Virus record (IMG/VR): IMGVR_UViG_3300022751_000001
Coordinates: 14,950 to 78,949 of that record
Strand: one strand, 5' to 3'
Length of the DNA stretch: 64,000 nucleotides
Origin: a virus
Lineage: Duplodnaviria; Heunggongvirae; Uroviricota; Caudoviricetes
Both the position numbers and the translations under genes were made by a program. Below are positions 41,099 through 64,000 of the stretch, in pieces. The notes beneath the pieces are model-generated. The model searched no databases. It was not told the DNA's origin and worked only from the letters and a program-made list of their open reading frames with translations. How positions within the stretch are numbered: position 1 is the stretch's first letter; the number at the start of each line of letters is the position of its first letter.

Positions 41099-41103
41099 AT
41101 ATT

Positions 41104-41274: not shown

Positions 41275-41277
41275 TTA

Positions 41278-41352: not shown

Positions 41353-41355
41353 ATT

Positions 41356-41430: not shown

Positions 41431-41437
41431 ATATATT

Positions 41438-41512: not shown

Positions 41513-41517
41513 ATATT

Positions 41518-41600: not shown

Positions 41601-41985
41601 ATATTGGGTGCTGGGTTTTGTTGATTTGTGCCCAGCGTCCCGACTAGCGATATGCAATTGCATAAAGCTATCAAATCGGTCAGACCTTTCATCGGTAGTC
41701 TGAATGAGCCTTATACTTGAGACTCGCTTATCTTTCTCAAGCAGGGTGCGCTAAACGCTCCAAGGGTCGGCAGACCCGTCGTACAACCATTCATTTCGGG
41801 GGAGGGGAGTGTATGCCCCAGCTTAATCTATCGCTCTTTGCAATAGACCCCCTGATGTAACTCGACCGCTGCGCTACCCATCACGGTTTACAGTACCTAC
41901 CAGCTTTGGGAGCTGGGGTGTTAGGGTCACTTACAGCCCTATCTGCTGACTACCGTGCCAAAGCCTCGTCCGTCGGTTAATTTGT

Positions 41986-42019
41986 TAAAAAAAGACACCT
42001 ACTTGTGGGTAGATGTCTC
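41986..42019 (-). terminator. rho-independent terminator (minus strand) inside the tRNA region
   Basis: minus-strand GAGACATCTACC-cacaa-GTAGGTGTC then TTTTTTT. Confidence 0.45.
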
Positions 42020-42140
42020 TCGTTGTTTGTTTTCAAAATTCTTCTTATGAAGAGAACGACAAGACACCTACACTAAATTGATCCGGGCAATTTGACCAGA
42101 GCTGTGATAGTAGTGAGTGACTATATAATGTCTTCATAAT
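42020..42140 (-). ncRNA. candidate small RNA (~130 nt) bounded by promoter and terminator
   Basis: minus-strand promoter ttgtat-18-tgg-tataat (plus 42144-42173) upstream and the 41986-42019 terminator downstream; longest ORF inside is 21 codons. Confidence 0.3.
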
Positions 42141-42143
42141 TTC

Positions 42144-42173
42144 ATTATACCATAATAATAAATGGCAATACAA
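42144..42173 (-). promoter_or_regulatory. putative promoter with extended -10 (minus strand)
   Basis: reverse complement ttgtattgccatttattattatggtataat. Confidence 0.35.
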
Positions 42174-42188
42174 TCTTTTTTATAAATT

Positions 42189-42263
42189 TGGTCACCCATG
42201 GGAGAGTTGAACTCCCGTTGCATGATTGAAAATCATGTGTCCTAACCGTTAGACGAATGGGCG
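42189..42263 (-). tRNA. tRNA-Glu(UUC)
   Basis: anticodon stem CATGA/TCATG, loop TTTTCAA; T-arm GGGAG-TTCAACT-CTCCC; CCA. Confidence 0.7.
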
Positions 42264-42268
42264 ATATG

Positions 42269-42345
42269 TGGTGAAACCGATAGGGATCGAACCTATGACA
42301 CCCTGATTAAGAGTCAGGTGCTCTAACCAGCTGAGCTACGGTTCC
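42269..42345 (-). tRNA. tRNA-Lys(CUU)
   Basis: GCTCAGCTGGTTAGAGC D-arm; anticodon loop CTCTTAA; CCA. Confidence 0.7.
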
Positions 42346-42442
42346 ATATCTTGAAAAGGTGCTACGAGAAGTTTCGGCTCATACGTCCATGCAATTCCTG
42401 CCTGGTTTGACCTCGTAATCATACTTGCTACCAATATGTATT

Positions 42443-42518
42443 TGGTGGAGTTGCAGAGAATCGAACTCTGGTGAAGACGTTGCAAACGTCCCATAATAAA
42501 CCGTTATATGACAACCCC
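42443..42518 (-). tRNA. tRNA-Ala(UGC)
   Basis: acceptor GGGGTTG/CAACTCC; anticodon loop TTTGCAA; T-arm CAGAG-TTCGATT-CTCTG; CCA. Confidence 0.65.
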
Positions 42519-42526
42519 GAATTGTT

Positions 42527-42602
42527 TGGTAGTTCCCGCTGGACTTGAACCAGCACCAGCTTCGTTAGAACCGAAGTGCCCTATCCATTAGACCAGAGAA
42601 CC
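42527..42602 (-). tRNA. tRNA-Arg(UCU)
   Basis: anticodon stem CTTCG/CGAAG, loop GTTCTAA; T-loop TTCAAGT; CCA. Confidence 0.65.
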
Positions 42603-42830
42603 TTATATTTCTGCTTTGAGGTACTTATCGAGCAGATCATTGATTTGAGTAATGTGAACCATACCAGCTTGTTTCACAGCTATTTCACCAAAGTGTCTGC
42701 GCAGTACTACGAAACCTTGTTCGAGTGCTTGCGTTTCTTCTTCAATGATGTCGCGAGTTAGGTCATGCACTAGACTTTCAGCTTGTCGCTTGACTAAGTT
42801 TGGGTCTGGGTCTTTGCGGTATGCTTCCAT
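42603..42830 (-). CDS. hypothetical protein nested inside the tRNA array
   Basis: 75 aa from the internal ATG (MEAYRKDPDPNLVKRQAESLVHDL...); the longer ORF start would overlap tRNA-Gly; stop abuts the 5' end of tRNA-Arg. Confidence 0.4.
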   Translation of the reverse strand: MEAYRKDPDPNLVKRQAESLVHDLTRDIIEEETQALEQGFVVLRRHFGEIAVKQAGMVHITQINDLLDKYLKAEI

Positions 42831-42846
42831 ACTCTTATTATACGTA

Positions 42847-42921
42847 TGGTGCGGGTACACAGAATCGAACTGTGATCCCCTGATTGGAAGTCAGGTATAT
42901 TAGCCGTTATACTATACCCGC
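42847..42921 (-). tRNA. tRNA-Gly(UCC)
   Basis: perfect acceptor GCGGGTA/TACCCGC; anticodon loop CTTCCAA; T-arm CACAG-TTCGATT-CTGTG; CCA. Confidence 0.7.
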
Positions 42922-42927
42922 AAATGT

Positions 42928-43005
42928 TGGAGCCCCTCACGGAGTCGAACCGTTCCTCGTACCTACCACGGTACGCGTGCTAACCAACGTTACACTAACT
43001 GGGGC
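42928..43005 (-). pseudogene. tRNA-Thr(GGU)-like with irregular anticodon loop and acceptor (possible pseudogene)
   Basis: anticodon region CGTAC-CGTGGTAG-GTACG allows only a 6- or 8-nt loop around GGT; T-loop TTCGACT present; acceptor pairing imperfect; CCA position ambiguous. Confidence 0.3.
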
Positions 43006-43008
43006 GTA

Positions 43009-43082
43009 TGGGGCCGCCACTCGGTACTGCCCCGAGGTCGATAGTTTACAAAACTACTACTCTACTTTTGAGCTATGGCGGC
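43009..43082 (-). tRNA. tRNA-Thr(UGU) with non-canonical T-loop
   Basis: perfect acceptor GCCGCCA/TGGCGGC, discriminator C, CCA; anticodon loop TTTGTAA; T-arm TCGGG-GCAGTAC-CCGAG lacks the T54-psi55-C56 consensus. Confidence 0.5.
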
Positions 43083-43085
43083 ACT

Positions 43086-43161
43086 TGGTAGTCCCAGAAG
43101 GAATTGCACCCTCGACACCTTGTTCCGAAGACAAGTGCTCTATCTGCTGAGCTATAGGACT
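43086..43161 (-). tRNA. tRNA-Arg(UCG)
   Basis: acceptor AGTCCTA/TGGGACT; D-arm GCTCAGCAGATAGAGC; anticodon loop CTTCGGA; CCA. Confidence 0.6.
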
Positions 43162-43164
43162 TTA

Positions 43165-43268
43165 TGGTGCACGGGGGCAGCTTTAGGCTACCTCTATTCT
43201 AATAACGCTTCAGTGCACCTCTACGCTTTCGATTCTCGAGCCACGTTGCAACGATGTGCTCTCCGTAC
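43165..43268 (-). ncRNA. 104-nt CCA-terminated tRNA-like element (function unknown)
   Basis: terminal helix GTACGGA/CCCGTGC, discriminator A, CCA; no T-loop; interior contains CGTTGCAACG and ...GCCTAAAGCTGCCCCCGTGCACCA, echoing the elements at 40308 and 40907. Confidence 0.3.
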
Positions 43269-43273
43269 AAATT

Positions 43274-43358
43274 TGGTTGCGGGGACGGGATTCGAACCCG
43301 TGTATCTTGCGACAAAGGGATATGAGCCCTCCGAGAATGACCGCTTCTCAACCCCGCT
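43274..43358 (-). tRNA. type-II (long variable arm) tRNA with CAU anticodon and A1-A72 mismatch
   Basis: acceptor AGCGGGG/CCCCGCA with A1 opposite A72; 3-bp D-stem GAG/CTC; anticodon stem GAGGG/CCCTT, loop CTCATAT (anticodon CAU); variable arm TGTC-GCAA-GATA hairpin; T-arm ACGGG-TTCGAAT-CCCGT; CCA. Confidence 0.55.
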
Positions 43359-43363
43359 ATATA

Positions 43364-43439
43364 TGGTCGTCTCTGTAGGACTCGAACCTACAACCTTCTG
43401 TGTGTAAAACAGATGCTCTAGCCATTGAGCTAAGAGACG
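43364..43439 (-). tRNA. tRNA-Val(UAC)
   Basis: acceptor CGTCTCT/AGAGACG; D-arm GCTCAATGGCTAGAGC; anticodon loop TTTACAC; CCA. Confidence 0.7.
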
Positions 43440-43451
43440 ATAATTTGTTAA

Positions 43452-43525
43452 TGGTCGGTGTAGGTGGTTCTGCCCCACCGTATGCAGAATATAAGTCTGC
43501 TGTTCTACTATTGAACTATACACCA
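43452..43525 (-). tRNA. tRNA with UAU anticodon (Ile-UAU?) and non-canonical T-loop
   Basis: acceptor TGGTGTA/TACACCG; D-arm GTTCAATAGTAGAAC; anticodon stem GCAGA/TCTGC, loop CTTATAT; T-arm GGTGG-GGCAGAA-CCACC lacks the TTC consensus; CCA. Confidence 0.45.
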
Positions 43526-43532
43526 GAATACT

Positions 43533-43609
43533 TGGTTGGACGAGTAGGATTTGAACCTACGATCTCCTGAATATCAGTCAAGTGCTTTAACCAGCTAAGC
43601 TACCGTCCA
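43533..43609 (-). tRNA. tRNA-Ile(GAU)
   Basis: acceptor TGGACGG/TCGTCCA; anticodon stem CTTGA/TCAGG, loop CTGATAT; T-arm GTAGG-TTCAAAT-CCTAC; CCA. Confidence 0.6.
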
Positions 43610-43616
43610 TTATTTG

Positions 43617-43691
43617 TGGTGGGCTCGGTTGGAATCGAACCAACGTGGTACAGATTAAAAGTCTGCTGCTCAACCACTGAGCCACGAACCC
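43617..43691 (-). tRNA. tRNA-Lys(UUU)
   Basis: acceptor GGGTTCG/CGAGCCC; D-arm GCTCAGTGGTTGAGC; anticodon loop CTTTTAA; T-arm GTTGG-TTCGATT-CCAAC; CCA. Confidence 0.7.
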
Positions 43692-48107: not shown

Positions 48108-48254
48108 ATGACCGAACGCGAATACGTTTACGAAGTAGGTTTAACCCCTGACGACAAAGCACGCTTGCAACGTATGCTAGGTGTTAGTACACTTAGTCTT
48201 GAAGATTATGAACACGCTAAAAACGTGATTAACGATATAGAGGTTGAAGAGTGA
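48108..48254 (+). CDS. hypothetical small protein
   Basis: 48 aa (MTEREYVYEVGLTPDDKARLQRMLGVSTLSLEDYEHAKNVINDIEVEE); GTGA overlap with the next gene. Confidence 0.3.
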   Translation: MTEREYVYEVGLTPDDKARLQRMLGVSTLSLEDYEHAKNVINDIEVEE

Positions 48255-48868
48255 AAGTTTTAGCAGTCGGTGACACTCACCAAAAGCAGTGGATTTTAGA
48301 CAAGGTTGAAAAAATCGCTGGTAACTACGACAAAGTAGTTCTTTTAGGTGACTACCTCGACAACTGGGGTTCTAGCGGGTTCGACCGACTTGATATGATT
48401 CTGCGGGTGCAACGATTAGTGCAAACTAACCCGAACGTCATCGCGCTATGCGGTAACCACGACCTATGCTATTTCAACAAGAAGTACAGCGGTATGTATT
48501 CAGGGTGGGACGCTCACGCACAAATGATGTTTGACGCTGAACCGCAACTCACTGACTTTATGCGAAAGCTACCAGAAACCTACGAGATTGACGGGGTTAC
48601 CTACTCGCACGCTGGTCTGACTGATGACTGGACACCAAACCGTCACCCACTCGCAGATGATGGGCACATGTGGGTACGACCAGGGCAAGGCTACGTCTAC
48701 AAACCAAACCAAGTGTTCGGTCACACCCCAAGCAAGACTTGCTGGGAAGTACAACAAAACGTATGGTGTGTTGACACATTCTCGCAATACCCAGACCTTA
48801 CCCACTTTGGTGACTGTTCTGTGCTTGAAATCGTAGACGGTAAGACGTACACTGTTACTCAGTTATGA
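48251..48868 (+). CDS. calcineurin-like metallophosphatase (lambda-PPase-like Ser/Thr phosphatase)
   Basis: GTG start; VLAVGDTHQK (GDxHG), VLLGDYLDNWG (GDxxDRG-like), CGNHD (GNHE). Confidence 0.7.
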   Translation: MKVLAVGDTHQKQWILDKVEKIAGNYDKVVLLGDYLDNWGSSGFDRLDMILRVQRLVQTNPNVIALCGNHDLCYFNKKYSGMYSGWDAHAQMMFDAEPQLTDFMRKLPETYEIDGVTYSHAGLTDDWTPNRHPLADDGHMWVRPGQGYVYKPNQVFGHTPSKTCWEVQQNVWCVDTFSQYPDLTHFGDCSVLEIVDGKTYTVTQL

Positions 48869-49620
48869 GAATCTTAATCACTGGTTCTGAAGGGTTTATC
48901 GGTCGTCACGTTGTAGCGACCGCTCGCAATCGAGGGCACACGGTTGTTTGTGTTGACCACTTGCTAGAAAATGCTCGCTATATTAACCAGTATGACGTTG
49001 ATAGTTTTGACGCGGTCATTCACTTAGCGGCATATATTGATATTGGTCAATCTTTCAAAGACCCTTGGCTATATGTTTCGAACAACCTGTTGCAAATGCA
49101 AACGCTCGAGAATGCACGACGCGTCGTATTCGCTTCTAGCGCGGCTGTATACGGTAAGTTCTCACCCTACGGTTACACAAAGCGTCTCGGTGAATCACTG
49201 CTACCGAAGAACAGTATCTCGCTACGTCTATTTAACCCGTTCGGGCCTGGCGAAAACCACAAACCAGAGAACCACATTGTACCGCTACTCGCAGGTAACT
49301 CAAATGAGGGCAACGTAACCACTCTTTACCACGATGGTGAGCAGATTCGTGACTTTATTCACGTTAGTGATGTTGCTCTCGCTTTTGTGATGGCTGCAGA
49401 ATCTGATGCGACTGGTGCGTACGACCTTTGTAGCACACCGCTGTCTATCAAGAAAGTTGCTGAGCTTATGAAAGTACCGTTTGAATTGTCTAAAAGGTCT
49501 CGCGACGCTGGTGATACTATGAGCTTAGTTGGTGACCCGTTACCACTTGAAAAAGCAATCGGGTTCACACCTCAAAAAGATGTCAAAGAAATGCTAAAAA
49601 ACTGGCGATATTGGTATTGA
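48865..49620 (+). CDS. NAD-dependent epimerase/dehydratase-family protein (short form)
   Basis: MRILITGSEGFIGRHV Rossmann motif; catalytic YGYTKRLGE (YxxxK); 251 aa, shorter than typical UDP-sugar epimerases. Confidence 0.65.
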   Translation: MRILITGSEGFIGRHVVATARNRGHTVVCVDHLLENARYINQYDVDSFDAVIHLAAYIDIGQSFKDPWLYVSNNLLQMQTLENARRVVFASSAAVYGKFSPYGYTKRLGESLLPKNSISLRLFNPFGPGENHKPENHIVPLLAGNSNEGNVTTLYHDGEQIRDFIHVSDVALAFVMAAESDATGAYDLCSTPLSIKKVAELMKVPFELSKRSRDAGDTMSLVGDPLPLEKAIGFTPQKDVKEMLKNWRYWY

Positions 49621-49876: not shown

Positions 49877-49929
49877 CCGATTGATGTTCATACTTAGGTA
49901 TGAAAGAGATAAAACATAAAAGGATCAAC

Positions 49930-50862
49930 ATGAAAAAACCTATTCTACGTATGATGGTTGGTCTCCCTGGCTCAGGTAAAAGCACCGCAGCTAGTGAGCT
50001 GACAGACAACAGTACCCCAGATGAAACTTGGGTGCAGGTTGAGAAAGACCTTATTCGCAAAGACAGCAAGCTCTTTGAGGGCGGTGAGTACAACCACAAG
50101 CGCGGTGACGAAGCTATCGTTATTCGAGAGCGCAACCGTCTTATTCGTGACGCACTACGAGCTGGTAACAGCGTAGTCGTTTCAGACACAAACCTCGACC
50201 CTAAGCACCGTGGGCAACTGCGAATGTTGGCTACCGAAACCGACGTAGATTTCGAAGTCGATGACAGCTTCTTAGATGTACCAGTTGACGAATGTATTAA
50301 GCGCGACGAAGACCGTGAAAAGAGTATCGGTAAAGACGTTATCTTAGATATGTATTACAAATACGTTCACCCAGGCTTTCACCAACGTCGTTCTGACTGG
50401 AAAGACAAGCTACCACGTGCGTTCTTGTGCGACATTGACGGTACACTGGCTCACAACCTCACTGGGCGTAGCTGGTACGACCTCGAGCAAGTTAAGAATG
50501 ACACACCGAACTACGCACTAACACACATCTTTGACGCGATTGACCTGTTTCGTGATGACTTTTCTCGCAAGCACACGAAGTACACACACATCATTCTCTT
50601 GAGCGGTCGCAAAGAGGGGGCTCGAGCGGCTACAGAAGCGTGGTTAGACCAATGGTCAATACCGTATGATGAACTCATTATGCGCGCAGACAACGATGAC
50701 CGACAAGACTCTATCACAAAGAAAGAGCTGTACGAGCAACACATTAAAGACAAGTACAATGTTCTAGCTGTATTTGACGACCGACCACAGGTAGTTGATA
50801 TGTGGCGACGTGAGCTTGGCTTGATGGTATTTCAGGCTGCAGATCACGACTTGAAGTTTTAA
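49930..50862 (+). CDS. pnk: polynucleotide 5'-kinase/3'-phosphatase (T4 Pnk-like)
   Basis: P-loop MVGLPGSGKST; VSDTNLDPKHR (T4 ISDTNLNPERR); HAD phosphatase motifs FLCDIDGTLAH, ILLSGRKEG, VFDDRPQVVDMWRRELG (T4 IDDRTQVVEMWRRIG); start may be 49900. Confidence 0.8.
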   Translation: MKKPILRMMVGLPGSGKSTAASELTDNSTPDETWVQVEKDLIRKDSKLFEGGEYNHKRGDEAIVIRERNRLIRDALRAGNSVVVSDTNLDPKHRGQLRMLATETDVDFEVDDSFLDVPVDECIKRDEDREKSIGKDVILDMYYKYVHPGFHQRRSDWKDKLPRAFLCDIDGTLAHNLTGRSWYDLEQVKNDTPNYALTHIFDAIDLFRDDFSRKHTKYTHIILLSGRKEGARAATEAWLDQWSIPYDELIMRADNDDRQDSITKKELYEQHIKDKYNVLAVFDDRPQVVDMWRRELGLMVFQAADHDLKF

Positions 50863-52660: not shown

Positions 52661-52909
52661 ATGAGTATCAAACAATTAGTGTTGTTTGGTGGTGTCAGTA
52701 TCGCAATAATCGCTATTATCGCAGCTTTCATCACCGTTTTACCTGATCGCAAGGATACAGAACCAGCTGTCACAATTGAACAGTTGGACAACCAATTAAA
52801 AACCATTCAGTCAGACAATGAGTCTGGCTTATTTCAATTGAAGGAGAAGCAAGAAACCCTTGCAACTCTGCAAACTGAGCGTCAGTCGCTCGAAGAGAGA
52901 CTTAGATGA
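52661..52909 (+). CDS. hypothetical membrane/coiled-coil protein
   Basis: 82 aa; N-terminal TM helix then coiled coil; ATGA overlap with the CHAP gene. Confidence 0.4.
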   Translation: MSIKQLVLFGGVSIAIIAIIAAFITVLPDRKDTEPAVTIEQLDNQLKTIQSDNESGLFQLKEKQETLATLQTERQSLEERLR

Positions 52910-53487
52910 TAGTCGAGTTCGCTGTTGCTTCACTGATGTCGCTACAAGGTATACCTGCGTTACCTAACCCGCAACTAGAACAACAGCGAGTTCAACAAAC
53001 AATGATGGTCGAAATGACCAAAAAAATCGCAGAAGAAAAAGCAGAACGCGAGAAAATCATCGCACAACGAGCTGAACTTGAGGCTCAAATCAATCAGCTA
53101 GATACTGCTGTCGCTGGTCTCAAGAGCTTCTTTGTAGAACCAGGGCGCGACTCACCGAATAAAGGTGGTAACAGTTACGCTTGGGGTCAATGTACGTGGT
53201 ACGCACGCTCTCAACGCCCAGACATCGGTAGTTTCTGGGGTAACGCTAATAGATGGACCTCATCAGCACGAGCTGAAGGCTTTGAAATCGGTAAAGAACC
53301 TAAGATTGGGGCTATCGGTGTAAGCTATGCGGGGTGGGCTGGTCACGTCTTTATCGTTGAAAGCATGTCTCGTGACAAAACCGAAGTGACGATTAGTGAA
53401 ATGAACTACGCTGGCGGTATCGGTAGAGTCAACATTCGTACGGTGCCAGCATCATACGGGAACGATTATATCTACAGCCTAAAGTAA
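52906..53487 (+). CDS. CHAP-domain peptidoglycan hydrolase (lysin)
   Basis: YAWGQCTWYARSQRP...GWAGHVFIVESM are the Cys and His blocks of a CHAP domain; N-terminal coiled-coil/hydrophobic segment. Confidence 0.7.
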   Translation: MIVEFAVASLMSLQGIPALPNPQLEQQRVQQTMMVEMTKKIAEEKAEREKIIAQRAELEAQINQLDTAVAGLKSFFVEPGRDSPNKGGNSYAWGQCTWYARSQRPDIGSFWGNANRWTSSARAEGFEIGKEPKIGAIGVSYAGWAGHVFIVESMSRDKTEVTISEMNYAGGIGRVNIRTVPASYGNDYIYSLK

Positions 53488-54217: not shown

Positions 54218-54670
54218 TTACAGAATCGTTTTGTTTGTGTAGAAATCTTTTAAGTAAGGTATCTGTTCACGGATCGCTCTAATAGACAAACCCCCAAGCT
54301 CACGCTCAAGCGGCTTAACCCTCGGGTGACGTAGTGACTTCTCGACTAGCAATGAATACTGGTCGATACCATCGAGAACATCTAGGTTTCGTGGTAGTTC
54401 ACGCGCAACAAATTGAATGGTATGCAATGACGGTACAGGTACCGCCATTGTTTCTTTGTGTATCAAATTATGGGCTGCTACACCAAGTCGGTGAGCAATC
54501 ATACTCGGGTTCTCGCGAATCTCTAACGAAGCAGGGTGACCTTCCCAGAAACCTCTAGTGTGCGCAGTGTGGTGCTCGTTAAATCGTATCATTCCCGTCA
54601 TACTCCTTACCATCATAATACGCTTTTCCGTCTCTGAATAGAATATGATCGACTTGATATTGTCCGTCAC
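54218..54670 (-). CDS. hypothetical protein (start uncertain)
   Basis: 150-aa ORF overlapping the upstream gene by up to 92 nt; internal ATGs would cut the overlap to about 14 nt. Confidence 0.45.
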   Translation of the reverse strand: MTDNIKSIIFYSETEKRIMMVRSMTGMIRFNEHHTAHTRGFWEGHPASLEIRENPSMIAHRLGVAAHNLIHKETMAVPVPSLHTIQFVARELPRNLDVLDGIDQYSLLVEKSLRHPRVKPLERELGGLSIRAIREQIPYLKDFYTNKTIL

Positions 54671-55610
54671 CGTAGTCGCGAACGTGTGTCATTCCTTGTT
54701 GCCAGTTCTCTTGATATGCTACAGGGAGATTATGGTCATCTACTGCGCTGTGAAAGCCTGGAACCTCTCCAGTGGTGCGGCAGAGTGCACCTGCAACGTA
54801 TGCACCGAGTACTTTACCACGTCGGTCTGTGCGGTGGAATGACTCTGCTCTGTGAGCGTGACCTTGCATAACGTTTCGGTCTGGATTTTCTTTAGATAGT
54901 TTTTGTGCAGTAGAACCTGAAGCTGAAGACATAGTACCGTGCATAAATGCGAAGTCGTCAGCGTACTCGAATGCGGCTGCACCGTAACCACCGACCCAAT
55001 CAACACCTACGTGCTGTAGGTTTGCGAGATAAGGGTATGTCATTACTGGGTATTCGTCGCTAGAACCAGCTTGTCGCACCCCGTACATCTGCGGCATATT
55101 CTTGAGCGTGTAGTTCTTCAAGCGCACGTTGTGGTTTGAGTCTACCTCTGTAATCTTAGCTCGTGGGTTGTCAGAGCGAAGACCTGCGTAGAAGTCGTGG
55201 ATTCGTTGCAGCGAAGGTCCCAAAGTCCTGTGGAAGTGGTCTGAATCGGGGTTGAATCGAGATAAAGCCGCGAAGTCGACTGAGTCGCCAAGGTTAACGA
55301 TATGGTCTGGTTGTAGGTCGCGACAGATGTAGCGTGCAAGTTTCATCGCTCGTTCGTCGTGAATAGGTAGAAGCTCACCGCTATCTAACCGTCGATAATC
55401 AATCTGACTATCTCCCATCGCTACGATTGATGTGTATGGTCGGTCAACGCTTTTGCGACGACTTGGGGTAATGCGAGCTGCGACTGCTGGTGAAAATGGT
55501 TCACGGTCTTCTATGTACTCATACGACTGCAGGGTTGTGTGATCCCATTCGTTCGTTTCGCGGTTAAATGCCGCTGATTCCCATTCTTTTGATAGTCGCT
55601 TCTCGCTCAT
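54579..55610 (-). CDS. calcineurin-like metallophosphoesterase
   Basis: VAMGDSQID (GDxH), NLGDSVD (GDxxD), NHN (GNH), QGHAHRAE (GHxH). Confidence 0.7.
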   Translation of the reverse strand: MSEKRLSKEWESAAFNRETNEWDHTTLQSYEYIEDREPFSPAVAARITPSRRKSVDRPYTSIVAMGDSQIDYRRLDSGELLPIHDERAMKLARYICRDLQPDHIVNLGDSVDFAALSRFNPDSDHFHRTLGPSLQRIHDFYAGLRSDNPRAKITEVDSNHNVRLKNYTLKNMPQMYGVRQAGSSDEYPVMTYPYLANLQHVGVDWVGGYGAAAFEYADDFAFMHGTMSSASGSTAQKLSKENPDRNVMQGHAHRAESFHRTDRRGKVLGAYVAGALCRTTGEVPGFHSAVDDHNLPVAYQENWQQGMTHVRDYGDGQYQVDHILFRDGKAYYDGKEYDGNDTI

Positions 55611-56182: not shown

Positions 56183-56956
56183 TTAGAATAGCCCTTGTAC
56201 GAACTTCAGAATACCACCGATAAGACCTGTATCTTCTTCTGGCGCTGGGGCTGGAGTAGGATTTGTGGTGTTATTTGTAGTCGTGTTGTTCGTAGTTGAG
56301 TTGTTTGTTACAGGTGCAGAGGTCGTATTTCGAGAGGTATTGTTATTCGTTGTGCTTGGAGCTGGGGTTGTTGCACCCGCTGATTCAAGCTGGCGAATCT
56401 TTTCTTCGAGAGCCTCTACTTGTTGTCGCACAGTTGCAGGGTCAAGTGATGCTTCTTCGACTGTAAATGTAACAGTTCGGTTTCGCTCACAGTGATCTCG
56501 CCATAGAATTACGTCAGTGTAACATACGTCGAAGTTGAGGTAACAGTCGCGTGGTAGGCCATCGAATTGCGTTACGTCAGGGATAACGATTGCGTTATCT
56601 CGAGGTGGGTTCACCCCGTTAGGTCGGGTCGCAGGGATCGAGTCGAGCTGGATTTCACGTGCGTCACGCCCACCAGTTGCTTCACAGATAATAGTACGAA
56701 TACTTGTACCTGTAGCGTTAATCAGCTTAGTCGACTGACTTTGGAAGACAAGTGTGTCACCTGGATTAAATACAGGCTTGTCACCGTTATAGTTTTTAAC
56801 ATCTGTAATCTCTATTTTCCAGTCAACCAAAACATCAATCGGTTTGTTCATCAGATAGATGAAGCCCCCAAGAATGATTAAGATAAATGATAGGTTAATT
56901 AGTACAAGGGGACGGTGTGTGACCCAAGCCCACCAGCCGATTAGTTTTAGTTTCAT
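56183..56956 (-). CDS. membrane-anchored protein with Thr/Asn-rich low-complexity tail
   Basis: N-terminal signal anchor (LVLINLSFILIILGGFIYL); C-terminal PAPSTTNNNTSRNTTSAPVTNNSTTNNTTTNNTTNPTPAPAP. Confidence 0.45.
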   Translation of the reverse strand: MKLKLIGWWAWVTHRPLVLINLSFILIILGGFIYLMNKPIDVLVDWKIEITDVKNYNGDKPVFNPGDTLVFQSQSTKLINATGTSIRTIICEATGGRDAREIQLDSIPATRPNGVNPPRDNAIVIPDVTQFDGLPRDCYLNFDVCYTDVILWRDHCERNRTVTFTVEEASLDPATVRQQVEALEEKIRQLESAGATTPAPSTTNNNTSRNTTSAPVTNNSTTNNTTTNNTTNPTPAPAPEEDTGLIGGILKFVQGLF

Positions 56957-57280: not shown

Positions 57281-58426
57281 CTAGGCTAGGTGGTCGAGGT
57301 GGTGAGAGGGGTTATACCAACCATCAGTCTTGAGATCGTGTAGCCGAGAAAGGTAAGCGTCGAACTGTAAAGCAACAGGTTCAAGAGAGAAACGTTCTTG
57401 TGCGCGTTTACGAATAACACGACGTTGCGCGGTCGTAAAGTTTTCAGTTCTACGTACAGCTTCTAAGAAGTCACCGAACGTGTTACAGCGGTAACCGTCG
57501 ACACCTTGTAGCACTGTTTGCGCGAAGATACCGAAGTTTGTCGTGATGACAGGGGTACCAGATAATAGCGATTCAACGTGGACGTTACCGCCAGGTTCAA
57601 GATAAGTGGTAGGCATAAGTACGGCATCAGCGCGACTCATAAGTCGACCGCGTTCTTTAACACCGATTGTACCGATATATTCACCGTAACCAGTGAACTC
57701 TTGCCCTTCATTAAGCTGCCCAGCGATAATAAGACGCTTGCCGAGCTTTTCTGCGACTTGTTGAGCGATGTTATAACCCTTACGGTCAATCAAGCGACCG
57801 ATGTAGAGTAGATAATTACCCTTTTTGTCACCACGTTTCACTGCAAACGGGAACTGTTCTTTAGGGTGGTAAGGTGGAATCACTGCGTCGTAGAACTTTC
57901 CGTCATCATCGTGTCGTTCACCGTACACATAGTGTTGGTGAGTGATAGATTCGAACACCTTGTAGGGTGAATAAACACCTGTGTAGCCAATAAATAGCTC
58001 TGGTGCAATCAGATTAGGGATAGCATCAGTGACTTGTTTCTGACAATAGCCCGCTAAAACACCGAACAGAACGTCTTCGTCTGGGTGTTCTTTGATGTAA
58101 TCCTGCAAGAAGGTGATAGTTCGCTTGTTGTAGAGCTGCCAGTGAGCGTCTGTAGGCTCCCAAGTAAGGTTGTACATCGTCTTTTTGTACGCGAGCGGGT
58201 CACCGAAGAATTTTTCTTGCTCTTTCTTCGTGATAATAGGCACGTGTGAGTGACCGTGTTCGACAATATCGCACTCTTCACCACCCAAAGTAATGACTTT
58301 ATAGCCAATGCGAGCCATCATAATAGCAAAATTGCGCACCTTAGATTGGTACGCGTCGCTGGAGTATTCTGTGGTCAGGTGGGTGTGTGGTAGTCCTGCG
58401 ACTACGATAGTGAATTTATCGCTCAT
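57281..58426 (-). CDS. glycosyltransferase, GT-B fold (GT1/GT4-like)
   Basis: C-terminal EPGGNVHVESLLSGTPVITTNFG (E-x7-E-like nucleotide-sugar binding motif); 381 aa. Confidence 0.65.
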   Translation of the reverse strand: MSDKFTIVVAGLPHTHLTTEYSSDAYQSKVRNFAIMMARIGYKVITLGGEECDIVEHGHSHVPIITKKEQEKFFGDPLAYKKTMYNLTWEPTDAHWQLYNKRTITFLQDYIKEHPDEDVLFGVLAGYCQKQVTDAIPNLIAPELFIGYTGVYSPYKVFESITHQHYVYGERHDDDGKFYDAVIPPYHPKEQFPFAVKRGDKKGNYLLYIGRLIDRKGYNIAQQVAEKLGKRLIIAGQLNEGQEFTGYGEYIGTIGVKERGRLMSRADAVLMPTTYLEPGGNVHVESLLSGTPVITTNFGIFAQTVLQGVDGYRCNTFGDFLEAVRRTENFTTAQRRVIRKRAQERFSLEPVALQFDAYLSRLHDLKTDGWYNPSHHLDHLA

Positions 58427-58514
58427 ATATACTTATTATAATACAGGAAGACCAGTTATGCTATTTCGAGCGTAGAATGCGTCCTGCCGCTTCTCCTGCT
58501 GTCACAGACCCTAT

Positions 58515-59237
58515 TTAGAACGCACCACCAAGCAGATGAGGTGGCACACCTTTTGGTATATCTTCTGTGTATTCAAGGTCAAAGCGGTTCAAGAAGTCTT
58601 TGCGATTATTTCTCGCTTCGGGCACTATACTTTTTATAGCTTCATCGTCAAACTCTGAGTGAGCGAACGTCTCGAGCTTTTCACGAATCATTTCGTCACC
58701 ACCTAAACTCGAAAGGTGCCAACCGATTGCGTTACTCTTTGGCCATTGTGCGTACCAGCGAGCGTTAGAAGCCCCACCGACATCTTCATAGTCTTCGATA
58801 CGACCAATAACAGGTTGGTGGTCGGGTTGCCACTTCAGTACACCGCGCCAGTCTGCGTAAAAGTTGCGGTAATCGGTCAGTAGCGTGGTAGGTTTACCCC
58901 CTGCGGCTAGAATAGCAGCTGGGTGCGGTATCTCGTCACCGTCAGAAACGATATAGATTGCGTCAGGGTAGAGCTTATTAGCTTCAATAAGCACGCTGTC
59001 ACGCAACCACATCTCAGATTCCCACGGGTCTAACCCTTCAGGTATCGTAACAATCACGTCAATGACGTTTGGTAGGTCGAGTTTACGAACTTCGCGGGGT
59101 TTACCACGAAAAGTGTTGGTCGCTTGAACTGCAACGTGTTTGTCTACGGTGTTACCAAGAGTCGCGAGTCGTATTTTAACCGCATCGTATTCGTAACTCC
59201 ACATAAAAGCGTCAATTATCACAGTTCTATTCCCCAT
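58515..59237 (-). CDS. putative glycosyltransferase (DxD)
   Basis: IYIVSDGDEIP (DxD); 240 aa; overlaps the upstream GT gene by 19 nt. Confidence 0.45.
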   Translation of the reverse strand: MGNRTVIIDAFMWSYEYDAVKIRLATLGNTVDKHVAVQATNTFRGKPREVRKLDLPNVIDVIVTIPEGLDPWESEMWLRDSVLIEANKLYPDAIYIVSDGDEIPHPAAILAAGGKPTTLLTDYRNFYADWRGVLKWQPDHQPVIGRIEDYEDVGGASNARWYAQWPKSNAIGWHLSSLGGDEMIREKLETFAHSEFDDEAIKSIVPEARNNRKDFLNRFDLEYTEDIPKGVPPHLLGGAF

Positions 59238-59791
59238 TTATTCTGGTAGTATTCGCGGTCTAGAGCAATTTGATCTTGCATTCGACTCTGCGAGCTGTCA
59301 CCGTATTTGTTTTCAACCTTTTTAGACTCAAAGATAACGAACCCGTTAGCTTCTTCACACTGTCGCTGAATGTCGTCATCACCATACCACCAGACAAGGT
59401 TTTCGTCAGCGAGTATGTTGTGGTGGGGGTTAATTGCAAAAGCGTACCCCGAAATCATATAATACTGCCCTCGGTCTGCACTCGCACCTGAGTTACCGCC
59501 ACGAATAGCACTCACAGCTTGGTAGAGCCACCCGTCAGGTATAACTACATCATCGTTAAGAACAAGAATTACATCTGCGTCACCTTGGTCAAGGGCGTAT
59601 CGTATACCTCGGTTCCACCAACGAGAGATGTTAAAGGTCTCGTCGTATGTCCACGGGCCCTCAGCGTATACTTGAGCTTCTTCGCTGGTAGCAATAGTAA
59701 CGGGGGTCACCCCACTATTCGCACACCATTCGATTACGCTATGGTATTCTTTGGGTCGGTTACCTGTAGGTATTACTGCGTATATCTTCAT
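59219..59791 (-). CDS. glycosyltransferase family 2-like (GT-A)
   Basis: MKIYAVIPTGNRP...ADVILVLNDDVVIPDGW...WWYGDDD. Confidence 0.6.
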   Translation of the reverse strand: MKIYAVIPTGNRPKEYHSVIEWCANSGVTPVTIATSEEAQVYAEGPWTYDETFNISRWWNRGIRYALDQGDADVILVLNDDVVIPDGWLYQAVSAIRGGNSGASADRGQYYMISGYAFAINPHHNILADENLVWWYGDDDIQRQCEEANGFVIFESKKVENKYGDSSQSRMQDQIALDREYYQNKWGIEL

Positions 59792-60156
59792 CTCTTCGTC
59801 ATTATACCTTTACGTCGGTTGCACCTCAAGTGACACAGTGCGAGGTTTGAATATGAAGAAGTACCGCCTCTTGCGAGCGGTTTAATATGATCGACTGAGT
59901 ACATACCCGTCATCGGTGTCTTGCAAAGATAGCAAAGACGTTTCTGTTCGATTAGTTTCTTACGTCGCCATGTTTTGAATGCAGCGGTAAGTTTCTTGCG
60001 TTCGAATGCAGCTCGCCTCGCTCTTATCTGAGACGGGGTGAGCATACCGATGTCACGCTTTTTGCGTTGTACCCATTTAGAGCCAACCTTTACCCAGACC
60101 ACTTTAAATCCAAGCGGCTTTTGAAACAGGTACGAGTTGAATCTGAAACTCTTCAA
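59788..60156 (-). CDS. HNH endonuclease
   Basis: CYLCKTPMTGMYSVDHIKPLARGGTSSYSNLALCHLRCNRRKG. Confidence 0.7.
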   Translation of the reverse strand: MKSFRFNSYLFQKPLGFKVVWVKVGSKWVQRKKRDIGMLTPSQIRARRAAFERKKLTAAFKTWRRKKLIEQKRLCYLCKTPMTGMYSVDHIKPLARGGTSSYSNLALCHLRCNRRKGIMTKR

Positions 60157-60484
60157 GACGACAGATAGTGACTGCGTCTAGGGTTACGTCAGCCGCGTAG
60201 AACTTTGCGGTTTTCATTGTGCGAGTAGCGTTGTCGAAGAATGTCACGTTGAAGTACGGTACGTTGACCGCGTTAAGCAATTGCTGTGCTCGTTCAAGTG
60301 TGGTTACTGTGATTGTCACGTTTACGTTAGGGAAGATACCGATGAAGTTAGCGACAATGTCACCACTCATATTTCGGTATGCGTCTGACCAGAGCTTAGC
60401 GTATTGAATCTGCCATGCTTTGATCTCTGCGGTTCCTACCACTACACCGTTAATGGTGATTGGTTGGTCTGGTATGTTAGACAT
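60104..60484 (-). CDS. hypothetical tail-associated protein (immediately downstream of tape measure)
   Basis: 126 aa; position after the TMP suggests a distal-tail/assembly role, but it is small. Confidence 0.35.
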   Translation of the reverse strand: MSNIPDQPITINGVVVGTAEIKAWQIQYAKLWSDAYRNMSGDIVANFIGIFPNVNVTITVTTLERAQQLLNAVNVPYFNVTFFDNATRTMKTAKFYAADVTLDAVTICRLEEFQIQLVPVSKAAWI

Positions 60485-63400
60485 AAATTTGGTTTACTCC
60501 TGTCACCATTGTGCGGTCGTTAATTGAATTGCTGATAGCCCCACCAACTTTGTTACCGTCTAGGTATACGTTGATGACTGTTGGCCCATCGCTGCCCTTT
60601 GATTGACCGTTCAACTTAGAAGCAAGCTCGTCGATCCAACCAGTGTTGTTTTCGAGTGGCATTACGGCTTCACGTCCGTCTTCACCGAACATAGCGAGTG
60701 TCGCTTGGTCAACCACACCACCGCGAGCAAGTCGTGGGATAGATGGGAAGTTAGGTGATAGACCACCGATACCAGGGACGTTGTCTGGTACCTTAATCTT
60801 GTTGATTGATTTGATGACCCCGTTGATTGCGTCAATGATACCGTTGAAGACACCCTTAATGACACCAAGCACACCACTGAACACGTTTGTAATAGTATTC
60901 TTTAGGTTGTTGAATACCTGACTGATTGCGTTGCTTAATTGGTTGAACGCGTTTGCGATAGGGGCAACAACGTTGTTGTAGATCCAGTTGAAGATAGGCG
61001 ACATCACGCTAACGATTCTGCTGAAGATACCGCTTGCTACGTTGACGATTCCGTTCCATAGACCTGAGAAGGCACCCGCGATTGGGTCGATAATCTTAGT
61101 CTTGATCCAGTTGAAGAATGGTGACAAGAATGTCATTACTGCGTTGAACCCAGTGGTTACACCCGCAACGATACCGTTCCAGAGACCTGTGAAGAAGTTA
61201 GCAACTGGCGTGATTACGTTTACGAATACCCAGTTACCGAACATACCTAGTATCTGTGTGATGAATGACCACATAAGAATGAACGCGATTTGAATACCGC
61301 CCCATAGGTTAGCGAAGAACCCACCGATAGGCGTGATGATGTTTGTCATTATCCAGTTTGGTAGACCCGCTAGGGTGTTGAAGATAGTCGCTACCAGAGC
61401 AACGATTAAGACTACGATTGAAGCGAAGATTTGAGGGATAGGACCGAATGCACCTTCGAGTGCGAGCATGAAGACTTGACCGATTTGCGCACCAAGGTTC
61501 GTGAAGAACCCTACGATACCTTCGAAGATACCAGTGAACCACTTAGAGACAGCTTCCCAGTTAAAGATTAGAAGCAGTGCGGCTGTTAGAACTGCAGCGA
61601 TTGCCCAACCGATAGGACCGAACGCTTTCGCTACGTTTGCACCAACGGTCAGCACTGCTCGCAAGATAGTAGGTAAAGCTCTCAAGATGAGTGGACCAAT
61701 AGTCGTGAACACTCGAGCGATTTGAGGGCCTAGGTTAGTGAACACCGCGAGAATACGTGGACCGAGTGTCGTGAAGAACTTCACTAGGTTTGGCCCGAAG
61801 CTGCGTAGTGCGTTGATTGCTAGAGGACCTAGGTTCTTGAAGAAGTTAACGAAGTTTGCACCGAATACCGCAAGACCAGCACGAATAGCTGCCCATTGAG
61901 TAGGGAACCAACGAGTAAGTTGGTAAAGACCCGCGAGAACACCCGCAGGGATAATTAAGAAGTCCCACCAGTTGCTCTTAGGTGCGAGACCGTCGAGACC
62001 AGCAAGCATATTCTTGAGGTTATCTTTTAACTTACTGAAGTCAGGCAGAACAGGTTCAGTGATACCGAGGTCACCAAGACCACCACCACCGCCACCAGCA
62101 GCGTCAGCACCAGTAGGGCTGTTGATTACGTTCATCTTGTCGAATGCAGCTAGTTGCTTAGTGGCTTTCTTTGCAGCGTCACCAGCACCACCAAGGGCAC
62201 CTTCTACGTCACCGATACCAACAGCAGCGTTACCAGTTGATTCAGTAATACCGTCGAAGATTTCACCGAGTGCGTCAAGTGGACCTGTTGAAGGTGTTGC
62301 GCTGTTGAAGACACCGAACAGTGAGATAAGTGCGACAAGGGCAGCGACTACAAGCGCGATACGACCCGCAGTTGATACGAGTGCTCGCCCGAGTGCTAGA
62401 ACAGCGGCAGCGATACCGAGAATGACTGGAGTGACCGCAAGACCAACCGCTAAGAATATCGTGAACAATGTAATTGCTTGTGTCACTGATGGACCTAAGA
62501 AGTTCGCGATTGCTGTCGCAGTTTGAATGATTGCGTTAAGACCGATAAGCACCGCTTGAGCTAAACCGAAGAACAGCCGTGTAGCGATAACGAGTGCAGG
62601 TGCGATACCTTGACCAAGTACCTGTAGTAACTGTGCGAAGTTCGCTAGTAGTTGTCTGAACAGACCTTCGTTTTGTTGAACGAATTGAATTGCGATACCA
62701 AGAACACTCACGAGTGCTTGTTGCATGGCTGATGATGATGCGACTAGAGCCGCGAAGAGACCGACCAAGAGACCAGTACCGTAACCAATTTCACCAATCA
62801 AGTTACCGATGAACGGAATACGTGAGATCAAGTCTGTTGCGAATGCTAGGAACAGACCAGATAGAATTGCAACTACTTGCGGGTATTGTGATAGCAAGCT
62901 AAGCAGTGCACCAACCGCTTGACCGATTCTTTCGAAGGTCGCGACAACAAGTGGGTTTTCTACGAATGAAAGCAAGCTACTAAGTAGGTTCTTCAATCGA
63001 GAATAAAGACCGTCAACCGCAACGGTCATACCGTCTGTGGTTACAGTCACACCGAAGAATGCGAGACCGACACGCTTCAAGTTGTCTTGCAAGTTGTTCA
63101 AGATACCAGCGAATGTAGATGATTGCTTAATAGCACCTTGGAAGGCAATACCGCCTTCTTTGGTCAGGTTGTTCAATGCCTTAACGATGACTTCAGACGT
63201 TACTGAACCGTCACCGAATGCGCTACGAACTTCACCCGCGCTCTTGCCCATTGCTTCACCGATAGCTGAGATGAACCCAGGGAGTGAGTTTTGAATCTGC
63301 AAGAAGTCAGTACCAGTAGCTTTACCAGCACCGAAGATTTGAGAGAGAACGTAGTAGAAACGGTCTAGTTGGTCAGAAGATGCACCGAAGGCACCACCGA

Positions 63401-64000
63401 TGTCAGAGACACGTTGGATAACACCGAATGCTTGCGCACCAGTAAGACCTACCGATACGAGCTTTTGTTCGTAAGCGATAAGGCTTGCTGTGTCGTACGG
63501 TGTTGAGTTCGCGTATGTGTATAGGTCGAAGATCGCTTTACCAGCGGCTTCAGTACTTTGCAACAGGCTTTCAAGACCGAGTTGAGCAGACTCAATCAGC
63601 GAGATGGTTTTAAGAATAGGGATAGTCGCGAATGCTGCAACAGCTGCCGCAAGACCAAGACCCATACGAGAAATTTCACCAGTAGCGGTGCGAATGTTGT
63701 TACCGAATTGTAGAACGCTCTTGCTAGGGCCACTGAAGTTCTTACCAGCAACGTCGTTGAAGACTTTACCGAACCCTTGCATAACGTCACGCAGGTGAGA
63801 GGTTTGGTTCGCTGCTTTTTCAGCTTCGTCTTCTACTTGCTTGATACCCGCTGCGATTGTAGGAGCTAGACCAGCGAGACCACCGAATTGTGAACCAAGT
63901 TGGCCACCCAAAGAAGAAGCGGTATCTTGTATCGCTGTTCGTTGTCGTTCTAGCCAGTTGGTAGTGATTGAGCCCGCAGTAGCTGCGTCTGCACCCGTAC
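60477..64000 (-). CDS. tail tape measure protein, 5' end beyond the window
   Basis: ORF open to the window edge (no in-frame stop between 63911 and 64000); tandem ~11-aa (FxxNLGP...) and ~36-aa (NWI...ITPIxxFFxxLWNGI) repeats and hydrophobic helical segments typical of TMPs. Confidence 0.75.
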   Translation of the reverse strand, partial: TGADAATAGSITTNWLERQRTAIQDTASSLGGQLGSQFGGLAGLAPTIAAGIKQVEDEAEKAANQTSHLRDVMQGFGKVFNDVAGKNFSGPSKSVLQFGNNIRTATGEISRMGLGLAAAVAAFATIPILKTISLIESAQLGLESLLQSTEAAGKAIFDLYTYANSTPYDTASLIAYEQKLVSVGLTGAQAFGVIQRVSDIGGAFGASSDQLDRFYYVLSQIFGAGKATGTDFLQIQNSLPGFISAIGEAMGKSAGEVRSAFGDGSVTSEVIVKALNNLTKEGGIAFQGAIKQSSTFAGILNNLQDNLKRVGLAFFGVTVTTDGMTVAVDGLYSRLKNLLSSLLSFVENPLVVATFERIGQAVGALLSLLSQYPQVVAILSGLFLAFATDLISRIPFIGNLIGEIGYGTGLLVGLFAALVASSSAMQQALVSVLGIAIQFVQQNEGLFRQLLANFAQLLQVLGQGIAPALVIATRLFFGLAQAVLIGLNAIIQTATAIANFLGPSVTQAITLFTIFLAVGLAVTPVILGIAAAVLALGRALVSTAGRIALVVAALVALISLFGVFNSATPSTGPLDALGEIFDGITESTGNAAVGIGDVEGALGGAGDAAKKATKQLAAFDKMNVINSPTGADAAGGGGGGLGDLGITEPVLPDFSKLKDNLKNMLAGLDGLAPKSNWWDFLIIPAGVLAGLYQLTRWFPTQWAAIRAGLAVFGANFVNFFKNLGPLAINALRSFGPNLVKFFTTLGPRILAVFTNLGPQIARVFTTIGPLILRALPTILRAVLTVGANVAKAFGPIGWAIAAVLTAALLLIFNWEAVSKWFTGIFEGIVGFFTNLGAQIGQVFMLALEGAFGPIPQIFASIVVLIVALVATIFNTLAGLPNWIMTNIITPIGGFFANLWGGIQIAFILMWSFITQILGMFGNWVFVNVITPVANFFTGLWNGIVAGVTTGFNAVMTFLSPFFNWIKTKIIDPIAGAFSGLWNGIVNVASGIFSRIVSVMSPIFNWIYNNVVAPIANAFNQLSNAISQVFNNLKNTITNVFSGVLGVIKGVFNGIIDAINGVIKSINKIKVPDNVPGIGGLSPNFPSIPRLARGGVVDQATLAMFGEDGREAVMPLENNTGWIDELASKLNGQSKGSDGPTVINVYLDGNKVGGAISNSINDRTMVTGVNQIYV

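Follow-up and report, generated by a model that had tools for sequence, protein, structure and literature searches.

A three-gene glycosyltransferase locus of a metagenomic tailed phage, its accessory GT2–GT17 cassette, and a collagen-like tail fibre as candidate acceptor

To date, a few mycobacteriophages have been shown to glycosylate virion proteins with enzymes of their own, which changes recognition by antibodies. Here, we describe a locus of three consecutive minus-strand glycosyltransferase (GT) genes, designated A, B, and C, in a tailed phage (Caudoviricetes) with a genome of ~84 kb that is known only from metagenomes. The DNA analysed, hereafter the window, is a stretch of 64,000 nucleotides of IMG/VR record IMGVR_UViG_3300022751_000001 (positions 14,950 to 78,949 of that record), and its features are listed in Table 1. 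We propose, at a probability of roughly 0.5, that these enzymes serve the cytoplasmic O-glycosylation of a virion protein, most likely the Thr-rich collagen-like tail fibre encoded at 7023–10892. A separate set of GT genes in the window (17221–19900) is referred to as the first cluster.

According to the accounts in PMC12363180 and PMC10877033, which cite Freeman 2023, mycobacteriophages attach glycans to their capsid and tail tube by means of GTs of their own. As far as these accounts go, the enzymes are encoded in small clusters of two to four GT genes, sometimes with a methyltransferase gene (Che8 gp108–110, Corndog gp38, and Myrna), and the Che8-type products are soluble GTs that glycosylate virion proteins. 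The Che8 cluster adjoins an HNH gene, as does the locus in the window, and its products of 391, 232, and 211 amino acids (aa) compare with 381, 240, and 190 aa here. The first-cluster enzyme GT435 is homologous to Che8 gp109 through its C-terminal domain (residues 238–432; E 3e-14). Comparison of A, B, and C with the Che8 proteins revealed no homology (hhalign probability, 27% for C and gp110 and 0.2% for B and gp109; BLASTP, E 10 for A and gp108). The mycobacteriophage acceptors given in the same accounts are subunits of the capsid and the tail tube rather than a collagen-like fibre, and the hosts and lineages differ.

Exosporium proteins of Bacillus and Clostridioides (BclA) are O-glycosylated in their collagen-like regions. 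In C. difficile, SgtA, which is encoded beside bclA3, attaches O-linked N-acetylglucosamine (GlcNAc) to the Thr residues of GPT repeats in the collagen region, and the glycan is extended by other, unidentified GTs (PMC7157674). That reaction is cytoplasmic and nucleotide-sugar-dependent, with the Thr residues of the repeats as acceptors. As with BclA3 and SgtA, a GT gene of the A family is coupled to a Gly-X-Thr collagen gene (59 of the 77 viral loci described below), and the fibre in the window contains 52 G-x-T triplets. By contrast, SgtA comprises a GT-A domain and a TPR domain (PMC7157674), whereas A is a GT-B protein without TPR; the likeness is one of analogy, and homology is not expected. 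In addition, the acceptor in the present phage would be a tail fibre instead of a protein of the spore surface, and a long distance separates the fibre gene from A.

Strain-variable GT17 genes are listed among the chlorovirus capsid-glycan enzymes (PMC5408694, Table 4). The chloroviruses (PBCV-1 A064R and others) encode cytoplasmic virion-glycan enzymes with GT and methyltransferase domains, and GT17 occurs in some strains only, as does B; unlike the phage in the window, they are viruses of eukaryotic algae whose major capsid protein bears N-linked glycans, and the role of their GT17 proteins is assigned by annotation only. The T-even and TET–TAGT phages share with the present phage soluble GTs, strain-variable GT sets, and a TAGT-family gene, which lies elsewhere in this genome; unlike in those phages, no base-hydroxymethylating or base-oxidising enzyme was found in our survey (~80 of 84–86 kb covered, ~4 kb outside, and many small open reading frames [ORFs] without annotation), and none of A, B, and C is related to alpha-GT, beta-GT, or TAGT. 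The founding member of CAZy family GT17 is eukaryotic GnT-III (MGAT3), which transfers beta-1,4-linked GlcNAc to a mannose acceptor. B resembles GnT-III in matching Pfam GT17 above the cut-off, in its GT-A fold, and in its DxD-type motif; unlike GnT-III, it is a 240-aa soluble protein, and donor and acceptor specificity are not transferable at such a distance.

A reading of the window from its sequence alone (the sequence-only reading) had called one GT-B and two GT-A enzymes in three consecutive minus-strand genes, with an HNH endonuclease gene just upstream. All three ORFs are present, the fold and family calls hold, the HNH gene overlaps the start of C, and the motifs quoted at that time are found in A (EPGGNVHVESLLSGTPVITT), B (SDGDEIP), and C (VIPTGNRP, LNDDVVIPDGW, and WYGDDD). 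A matched Pfam Glycos_transf_1 (PF00534; 52.4 bits, E 6e-14, cut-off 26.4) in its C-terminal Rossmann domain, PF13692 (41.3 bits, cut-off 27), and, over its full length, phrog_3408 "glycosyltransferase" (E 1.5e-63). The translation contains an E-x7-E motif (E277-PGGNVHV-E285) in the nucleotide-sugar-binding domain; E285 is invariant in 28 family members, in which the first motif position is mostly Gly. From these features, A is assigned as a retaining-type GT4-like GT-B enzyme. In a sequence search, matches to solved GT-B enzymes covered residues ~200–360 only, and the solved neighbours included the small-molecule GTs pterin glucosyltransferase and AviGT4. The A family is large, with 754 matches in the first search and, in IMG/VR, 472 stretches. 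Among cellular homologues, those nearest to A (46–51% identity) are in metagenome-assembled genomes (MAGs) of Candidatus Saccharibacteria (TM7; L043–L054, L069, and L087), often beside collagen-like genes.

B matched Pfam GT17 (PF04724) with 31.7 bits (cut-off 26), over profile positions 74–190 of 348 only; its remote relatives scored 94–105 bits and fused giant proteins (described below) 200–239 bits, with E values of 1e-27 to 1e-71 overall. B has a GT-A fold with a DxD-type metal and nucleotide-sugar site, and its invariant motifs are D99-G-D101-E102, GWHLSSLG, and FAHxE. The match of C to PF00535 (20.6 bits, residues 59–111 only) was below the cut-off of 23.3; a few C homologues carry a precomputed PF00535 match. 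The fold of C is a GT-A fold closest to that of GT2 enzymes, with a conserved DxD, and its motifs are AVIPTxxR, NDD, and WWYGDDD. Both ORFs are intact, all family-invariant catalytic residues are kept, and the predicted structures are confident. B and C are inverting GT-A enzymes. The B profile had no meaningful match among PDB sequences. A scan of IMG/VR with the single B protein gave no match, and a scan with the alignment gave relatives at 21–25% identity only; the alignment pattern found no relative in 185,579 reference genomes, and a metagenome scan returned short contigs only. The GT17-like superfamily comprises 3,798 representative clusters at E ≤ 1e-10, of which the close B subfamily accounts for 49 at ≤ 1e-30.

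The fibre contains 123 G-X-Y triplets in 12 stretches, with Thr at Y in 52 and Ser or Thr at X or Y in 63%. Collagen-like ORFs, defined by at least 10 consecutive Gly-X-Y triplets, were surveyed around A homologues in the 77 IMG/VR loci, from which close relatives were excluded; the 59 loci with such an ORF compare with 1 of 17 control phage loci (Fisher p 6e-8). These ORFs were located upstream of the A homologue on the same strand in 64 of 72 cases and were denser within 3 kb of A homologues than beyond (p 5e-4), Thr dominated the Y position, and all 10 A clusters formed at 70% identity showed the association. The same layout was found in L040, a family-level relative with the same head–tail module, and in the unrelated T4-like cyanophage S-CAM7 (L017), in which gp014 (160 triplets) and gp015 (33 triplets) lie directly upstream of an A homologue situated between the baseplate hub and a tail fibre. 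Among non-Nocardia cellular and MAG loci, 14 of 22 had the A–collagen layout compared with 0 of 14 generic GT4 controls (p 8e-5); L042 is a cellular three-gene island of this type between housekeeping genes, and in Nocardia the neighbour upstream of the A homologue has a Gly/Ser/Thr/Pro-rich tail. In the window itself, A (57 kb) and the fibre gene (7–11 kb) are far apart. The sequence-only reading had considered DNA, a protein, or a lipid as the acceptor; the synteny of the A family with G-x-Thr collagen-like fibre genes favours the protein.

Three IMG/VR contigs of 54–86 kb (L019–L021), found through the flanking tape measure, are close relatives of the phage in the window, with tape measures 76–84% identical and most flanking genes 90–100% identical. 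All three keep A (96–97%) and the HNH gene (92–95%) and lack C and B. In blastn comparisons with L019 and L021, homology stops at window position 59803 and restarts at 58498. The C–B cassette in between (Table 1) begins ~10 nt ahead of the ATG of C and ends ~15 nt past the stop codon of B; it replaces the last HNH codons, so that the C-terminal tail of the HNH protein differs with and without the cassette. Terminal or flanking repeats, sought around the cassette as a signature of transposition, were not found, and its GC content (47.5%) is like that of the flanks, without anomaly. The cassette-bearing arrangement is identical in at least two independent assemblies. The 86-kb relative is taken to lack B anywhere because no close B homologue was found in IMG/VR. 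Because the relatives keep the HNH gene and A without C and B, A is a resident gene of the phage lineage, as a member of the phrog_3408 family, and C–B is an accessory cassette. The sequence-only reading had treated the three genes as one cluster: their adjacency stands, but a single inherited unit does not, since C–B is an indel cassette without counterpart in the close relatives, and the expectation that such relatives would share the cluster held for A and failed for C and B.

C and B homologues share contigs and form a conserved pair in diverse phage contigs of 44–69% GC, with C directly upstream of B in L003, L005/6, L007/8, L009, and L209 (the C-like protein of L007/8 aligned to C with an hhalign probability of 99.9%). 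The partners of the pair vary, being a 200–209-aa GT2 and unknown proteins in some loci, and an unrelated GT-B and a methyltransferase–GT2 fusion in L007/8, where the trio follows a Laminin_G ORF and a collagen-like ORF. The GT-B of L007 was tested as an orthologue of A and proved not to be one; therefore, the combination of a GT-B with C and B is a convergent composition and not a conserved trio. In L209, a C–B–GT2 cluster ends the tail–lysis operon; in L004, a 130-kb contig, the B homologue is accompanied by GT2, TylF-like methyltransferase, and GT25-like genes; and in Gordonia phage GMA2, the sole cultured phage with a B relative (39% identity), that relative is encoded between TerL and the portal. 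C–B is a module of its own.

Outside the window, giant proteins of 1,000–2,250 aa (P0223, P0224, P0228–P0230, and P0234) fuse two GT17 domains and up to four GT2 domains with FkbM/TylF-type methyltransferase domains. Because these proteins fuse such domains, GT17 plus GT2, with or without a methyltransferase, therefore acts like a glycan assembly line. The contig L004 also carries a full-length homologue (38% identity) of the two-domain GT of the first cluster, which shares one operon with the B homologue and with a methyltransferase gene of the sugar type, and the first cluster probably belongs to the same pathway as A, B, and C. The multi-step glycan that the sequence-only reading had proposed from the several GT genes is supported by this operon and by the fusion giants.

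The Stealth-like gene of the first cluster is kept in the close relatives (74–91%). The two GT genes of that cluster (17221–19244) are swapped in relatives (L024, 19011–20933; L027, 19527–20921) for a gene encoding a 464-aa GT, of which the N-terminal domain alone is related (39%) and the C-terminal half is different; L024 additionally has a Methyltransf_23/RfbT-like methyltransferase in place of the window GT genes. By comparison of these genomes, the first cluster is a replacement hot spot. Since relatives swap first-cluster GTs and lack C–B, near-identical phages therefore bear different glycan toolkits. Several HNH genes are present in the window (15725–16258, 59788–60156, and one more among the small ORFs), one of which encodes a fusion with an AP2 DNA-binding domain; two adjoin the variable GT loci, consistent with homing-endonuclease-associated gene exchange. 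The product of the GalE-like gene (Table 1) scored 96 bits against NCBIfam galE, below the cut-off, and is a probable nucleotide-sugar supply enzyme; an epimerase homologue is encoded near C–B in L003. Two calcineurin-like metallophosphoesterase genes and a T4-type PNKP gene are located near the epimerase gene (48251–48868, 49900–50862, and 54579–55610).

In the scheme that we propose, A, a soluble retaining GT-B, would act on, or very early on, the hydroxyl-rich repeats of the fibre. The GT2-like C and the GT17-like B, whose cassette is inserted in the late operon directly upstream of A, would add further sugars or branches, working with the variable first cluster (two GTs and the Stealth-like protein) and the GalE-like epimerase, and gain, loss, and swap of GT genes among ~95%-identical phages would yield a strain-specific surface glycan. 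Acceptor, order of action, sugars, and benefit are the parts of this scheme that we infer, whereas the families and folds, the indel of the cassette, the conserved pairing of C with B, the link between the two GT clusters, the synteny of the A family with collagen-like genes, and, within the ~80 kb surveyed, the lack of base-hydroxymethylation genes are observed. The fibre is proposed as the acceptor because A-family genes are syntenic with collagen-like genes and a fibre of 123 triplets is present, and a virion target is proposed because the GT genes sit in late or structural operons (here and in GMA2, L007/8, L209, and S-CAM7). Cytoplasmic virion glycosylation is proposed because neither TM (transmembrane) segments nor Wzx/Wzy/GtrA-type or lipid-carrier enzymes were seen. 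The occurrence of C–B in phages of 44–69% GC fits a host-independent acceptor.

Several observations weigh against this scheme. A is ~35–46 kb from the fibre gene in the present phage, so that the synteny is borrowed from relatives; the phage synteny may be due in part to a conserved order of modules and not to function, and the IMG/VR A homologues form only 2–3 clusters at 50–60% identity. Prokaryotic collagens in general are rich in G-x-T triplets. None of A, B, and C is a homologue of Che8 gp108–110, the proteins implicated by experiment, and the C–B loci other than L007/8 have no collagen-like ORF within 10 kb. In small siphoviruses, C–B closes the late operon, where accessory (moron) genes, which may act on the host, are typically found. 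Finally, GT4, GT2, GT25, Stealth, and epimerase proteins belong to classic polysaccharide-synthesis families.

The last two points lead to the host envelope as another target, on which the soluble GTs would modify a cell-wall polymer or a cytoplasmic precursor (teichoic acid, arabinogalactan, lipopolysaccharide, or a capsule intermediate) and thereby block superinfection or keep progeny from adsorbing to debris; the model is prophage TarP, which modifies S. aureus wall teichoic acid. The set of GT4, GT2, GT25-like, Stealth-CR2-like, RfbT-like methyltransferase, and GalE-like epimerase proteins is typical of polysaccharide pathways, C–B–GT2 follows the lysis genes in L209 and similar small siphoviruses, which is a classic accessory or conversion position, and strain-level variability would also fit receptor-related selection. 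We nevertheless consider an envelope target, a soluble TarP-like action on teichoic acid included, less likely than a virion protein. The phage looks virulent, with 22 tRNA genes and no integrase or repressor seen, and expression from a late operon would leave little time for envelope remodelling. Membrane, flippase, or priming enzymes were not seen, and the window gave no GtrA/GtrB, Wzx/Wzy, or integrase matches. The spread of C–B over phages of 44–69% GC, including a Gordonia phage, makes a single host polymer unlikely, and the failure of the pattern scan to find a B relative in the 185,579 reference genomes argues against a common prophage conversion gene. Moreover, an envelope target leaves the A–collagen synteny without explanation.

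DNA is the least probable of the targets considered. In that case, the GTs would add or extend sugars on modified phage bases to evade restriction, in the manner of the T-even phages, of arabinosylation, or of TET/TAGT systems, and the sequence-only reading had named a T4-like glycosylation of 5-hydroxymethylcytosine (hmC). TAGT enzymes add a second glucose to glucosyl-hmC in T6-like phages (PMC13390438). In keeping with this possibility, the window contains a true TAGT-family gene (28842–29756; PF20691, E 2e-32; phrog_842). Strain-variable GT sets are also known for the DNA sugars of T-even phages. However, our survey of the window (~100 ORFs) and of the remaining genome as read from the close relatives (~80 of 84–86 kb in all; the part outside the window encodes a Mor-family activator, an AAA ATPase, and a portal) revealed no TET/JBP, thymidylate-synthase-like or dCMP/dUMP hydroxymethylase, C5-methyltransferase, or 5-hydroxymethyluracil kinase, and at least 20 kb sampled around C–B in 34–36-kb phages was likewise devoid of such base-modifying genes. 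Neither PHROG nor Pfam relates A, B, or C to alpha-GT, beta-GT, TAGT, or JGT, their genes are located in late structural operons unlinked to the TAGT-like gene, and that gene belongs to a ParB-like/terminase-adjacent group of small siphoviruses in which TET is lacking as well. The DNA acceptor of the earlier reading is accordingly not upheld. Nor do we favour, at a very low probability, the view that C–B is recently acquired cargo that was brought in by recombination beside a homing HNH gene and is now either neutral or in decay, or that it acts on a small-molecule acceptor. The closest relatives without C–B are evidently viable, the cassette is flush with the HNH gene, and the nearest solved sequence relatives of A include small-molecule GTs; yet both ORFs are intact with their catalytic residues and confident models, the same cassette-bearing arrangement recurs between independent assemblies, the translational overlaps indicate operon integration, and the GC content of the cassette matches that of the genome.

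The surroundings of the locus are as follows. On the minus strand, the 5′ to 3′ order is tape measure, phrog_1194 protein, HNH, C, B, A, four small membrane proteins, and a metallophosphoesterase. The HNH gene ends over the start codon of C (ATGA), and C and B overlap by 19 nt. None of A, B, and C has a TM segment or an equivalog-level name in NCBIfam. The sequence-only reading had placed the locus between the tape measure and the lysis genes; the tape-measure side holds, whereas "lysis genes" is plausible but weakly backed for the other side, where one of the small membrane proteins is weakly holin-like (E 0.025) and the recognisable CHAP lysin is encoded on the other strand. A consensus scan gave a sigma-70-like site directly upstream of C at the cassette border, which is weak evidence, as the 7 such sites found in the region compare with 9.9 expected by chance and the site is thus not significant by itself. 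Both hexamers are poorer in the close relatives. An independent C–B transcription unit was considered and rejected, as the promoter and terminator scan was not enriched over shuffles.

Table 1. Features of the window, with positions counted from its first nucleotide
Feature	Positions	Strand	Evidence or remark
Collagen-like tail fibre, 1,289 aa	7023–10892	-	Pfam Collagen E 3e-41; tail-fibre PHROGs
Two-domain GT, first cluster	17221–18528	-	PHROG/Pfam
GT, first cluster	18525–19244	-	PHROG/Pfam
Stealth-CR2-like protein, first cluster	19241–19900	-	PHROG/Pfam
Short GalE-like NAD-dependent sugar epimerase/dehydratase	48865–49620	+	Pfam Epimerase E 1.5e-34
CHAP lysin, recognisable	52906–53487	opposite to A, B, and C	
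A, soluble GT-B glycosyltransferase, GT4-like, 381 aa	57281–58426	-	Pfam; phrog_3408
C–B cassette, 1,304 bp	58499–59802		holds exactly C and B; ~31 bp instead in close relatives
B, soluble GT17-like GT-A glycosyltransferase, 240 aa	58515–59237	-	Pfam GT17
C, compact soluble GT2-like GT-A glycosyltransferase, 190 aa	59219–59791	-	
HNH endonuclease gene	59788–60156	-	Pfam HNH E 1.5e-9
Sigma-70-like site, TTGAGG-17-TATAAT	59801–59829	-	consensus scan; weak evidence
phrog_1194 protein	60104–60484	-	
Tape measure	60477–63911	-	

The same locus was found on an 84,070-bp ENA contig (k141_1923624) and on a 29.5-kb Logan contig; megablast against 50,697 GenBank phages gave no match. Window position 54366 corresponds to position 1 of k141_1923624, so that the window comes from a differently permuted assembly, which is consistent with a genome of ~84 kb that is circular or terminally redundant. 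The protein p257 (257 aa, 56183–56956), encoded between the GT genes and the holin-like genes, begins with a TM helix and ends with an amphipathic helix; in between are a Cys-containing domain, a coiled coil, and a mucin-like linker rich in Thr and Asn (TTNNNTSRNTTSAPVTNNSTTNNTTTNNTT). It may be lysis-associated or spanin-like. It was considered as an acceptor for C–B and rejected, as relatives conserve its linker whether or not they carry the cassette, and the segment possibly lies outside the cytoplasm. The structural proteins encoded upstream of the tape measure have no striking Ser/Thr-rich tails. In S-CAM7, a 2-oxoglutarate-Fe(II) oxygenase gene (7966–8562) directly follows the two collagen-like proteins, with the A-family GT on one side and the tail-fibre gene on the other. 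This arrangement recalls the prolyl/lysyl hydroxylation and glycosylation of collagen; in the phage of the window, an oxygenase of this kind was not seen. The TAGT-family gene adjoins TerL (26846–28252), with a weakly ParB-like gene (25158–25748) nearby, and its relatives (33–47% identity) are likewise flanked by terminase and ParB genes in small siphoviruses of Lactobacillus, E. coli, Salmonella, and Haloarcula.

With respect to lifestyle, 22 tRNA genes for 19 amino acids form a dense array on the minus strand (40147–43691) in an ORF-poor region, which points to a virulent phage whose codon usage is independent of that of the host. The lysins of the window carry CHAP and Amidase_2+G5 domains; these domains and the TM7 homologues of A hint at a Saccharibacterium or another Gram-positive-type organism as the possible host. 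The terminase is only ~30% identical to those of Bacteroidota phages. The ~80 kb surveyed contained no recognisable gene for a DNA polymerase, primase, or helicase. The window also encodes two membrane-associated proteins that are unusual as phage cargo, one of the LemA family (22717–23346) and one of the SPFH/Band-7 type (31587–32420).

Beyond this phage, we tentatively suggest, and regard as less probable than the proposal for the single fibre, that the phrog_3408 GT-Bs of phages and some bacteria, a large family not described before, O-glycosylate Thr-rich collagen-like regions in tail fibres, and that small mobile cassettes such as C–B, together with swapped GT and methyltransferase genes, diversify the glycan between strains. 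Our literature search found no paper on the glycosylation of phage collagen-like fibres. If the suggestion is true, glycosylated collagen-like fibres would be common among environmental phages, and glycan diversification between near-identical phages would resemble that of O-antigen loci on bacterial surfaces. The presence or absence of the cassette and the swapped first cluster in ~95%-identical genomes provide a natural experiment, in which the same fibre is combined with different glycan toolkits. Fibres sugar-coated by phage enzymes, if present in many environmental phages, would affect the modelling and engineering of receptor-binding proteins, the reading of fibre stability and host range, and the annotation of the many "auxiliary" GTs of viromes, which are today read as DNA-protection or cell-wall genes.

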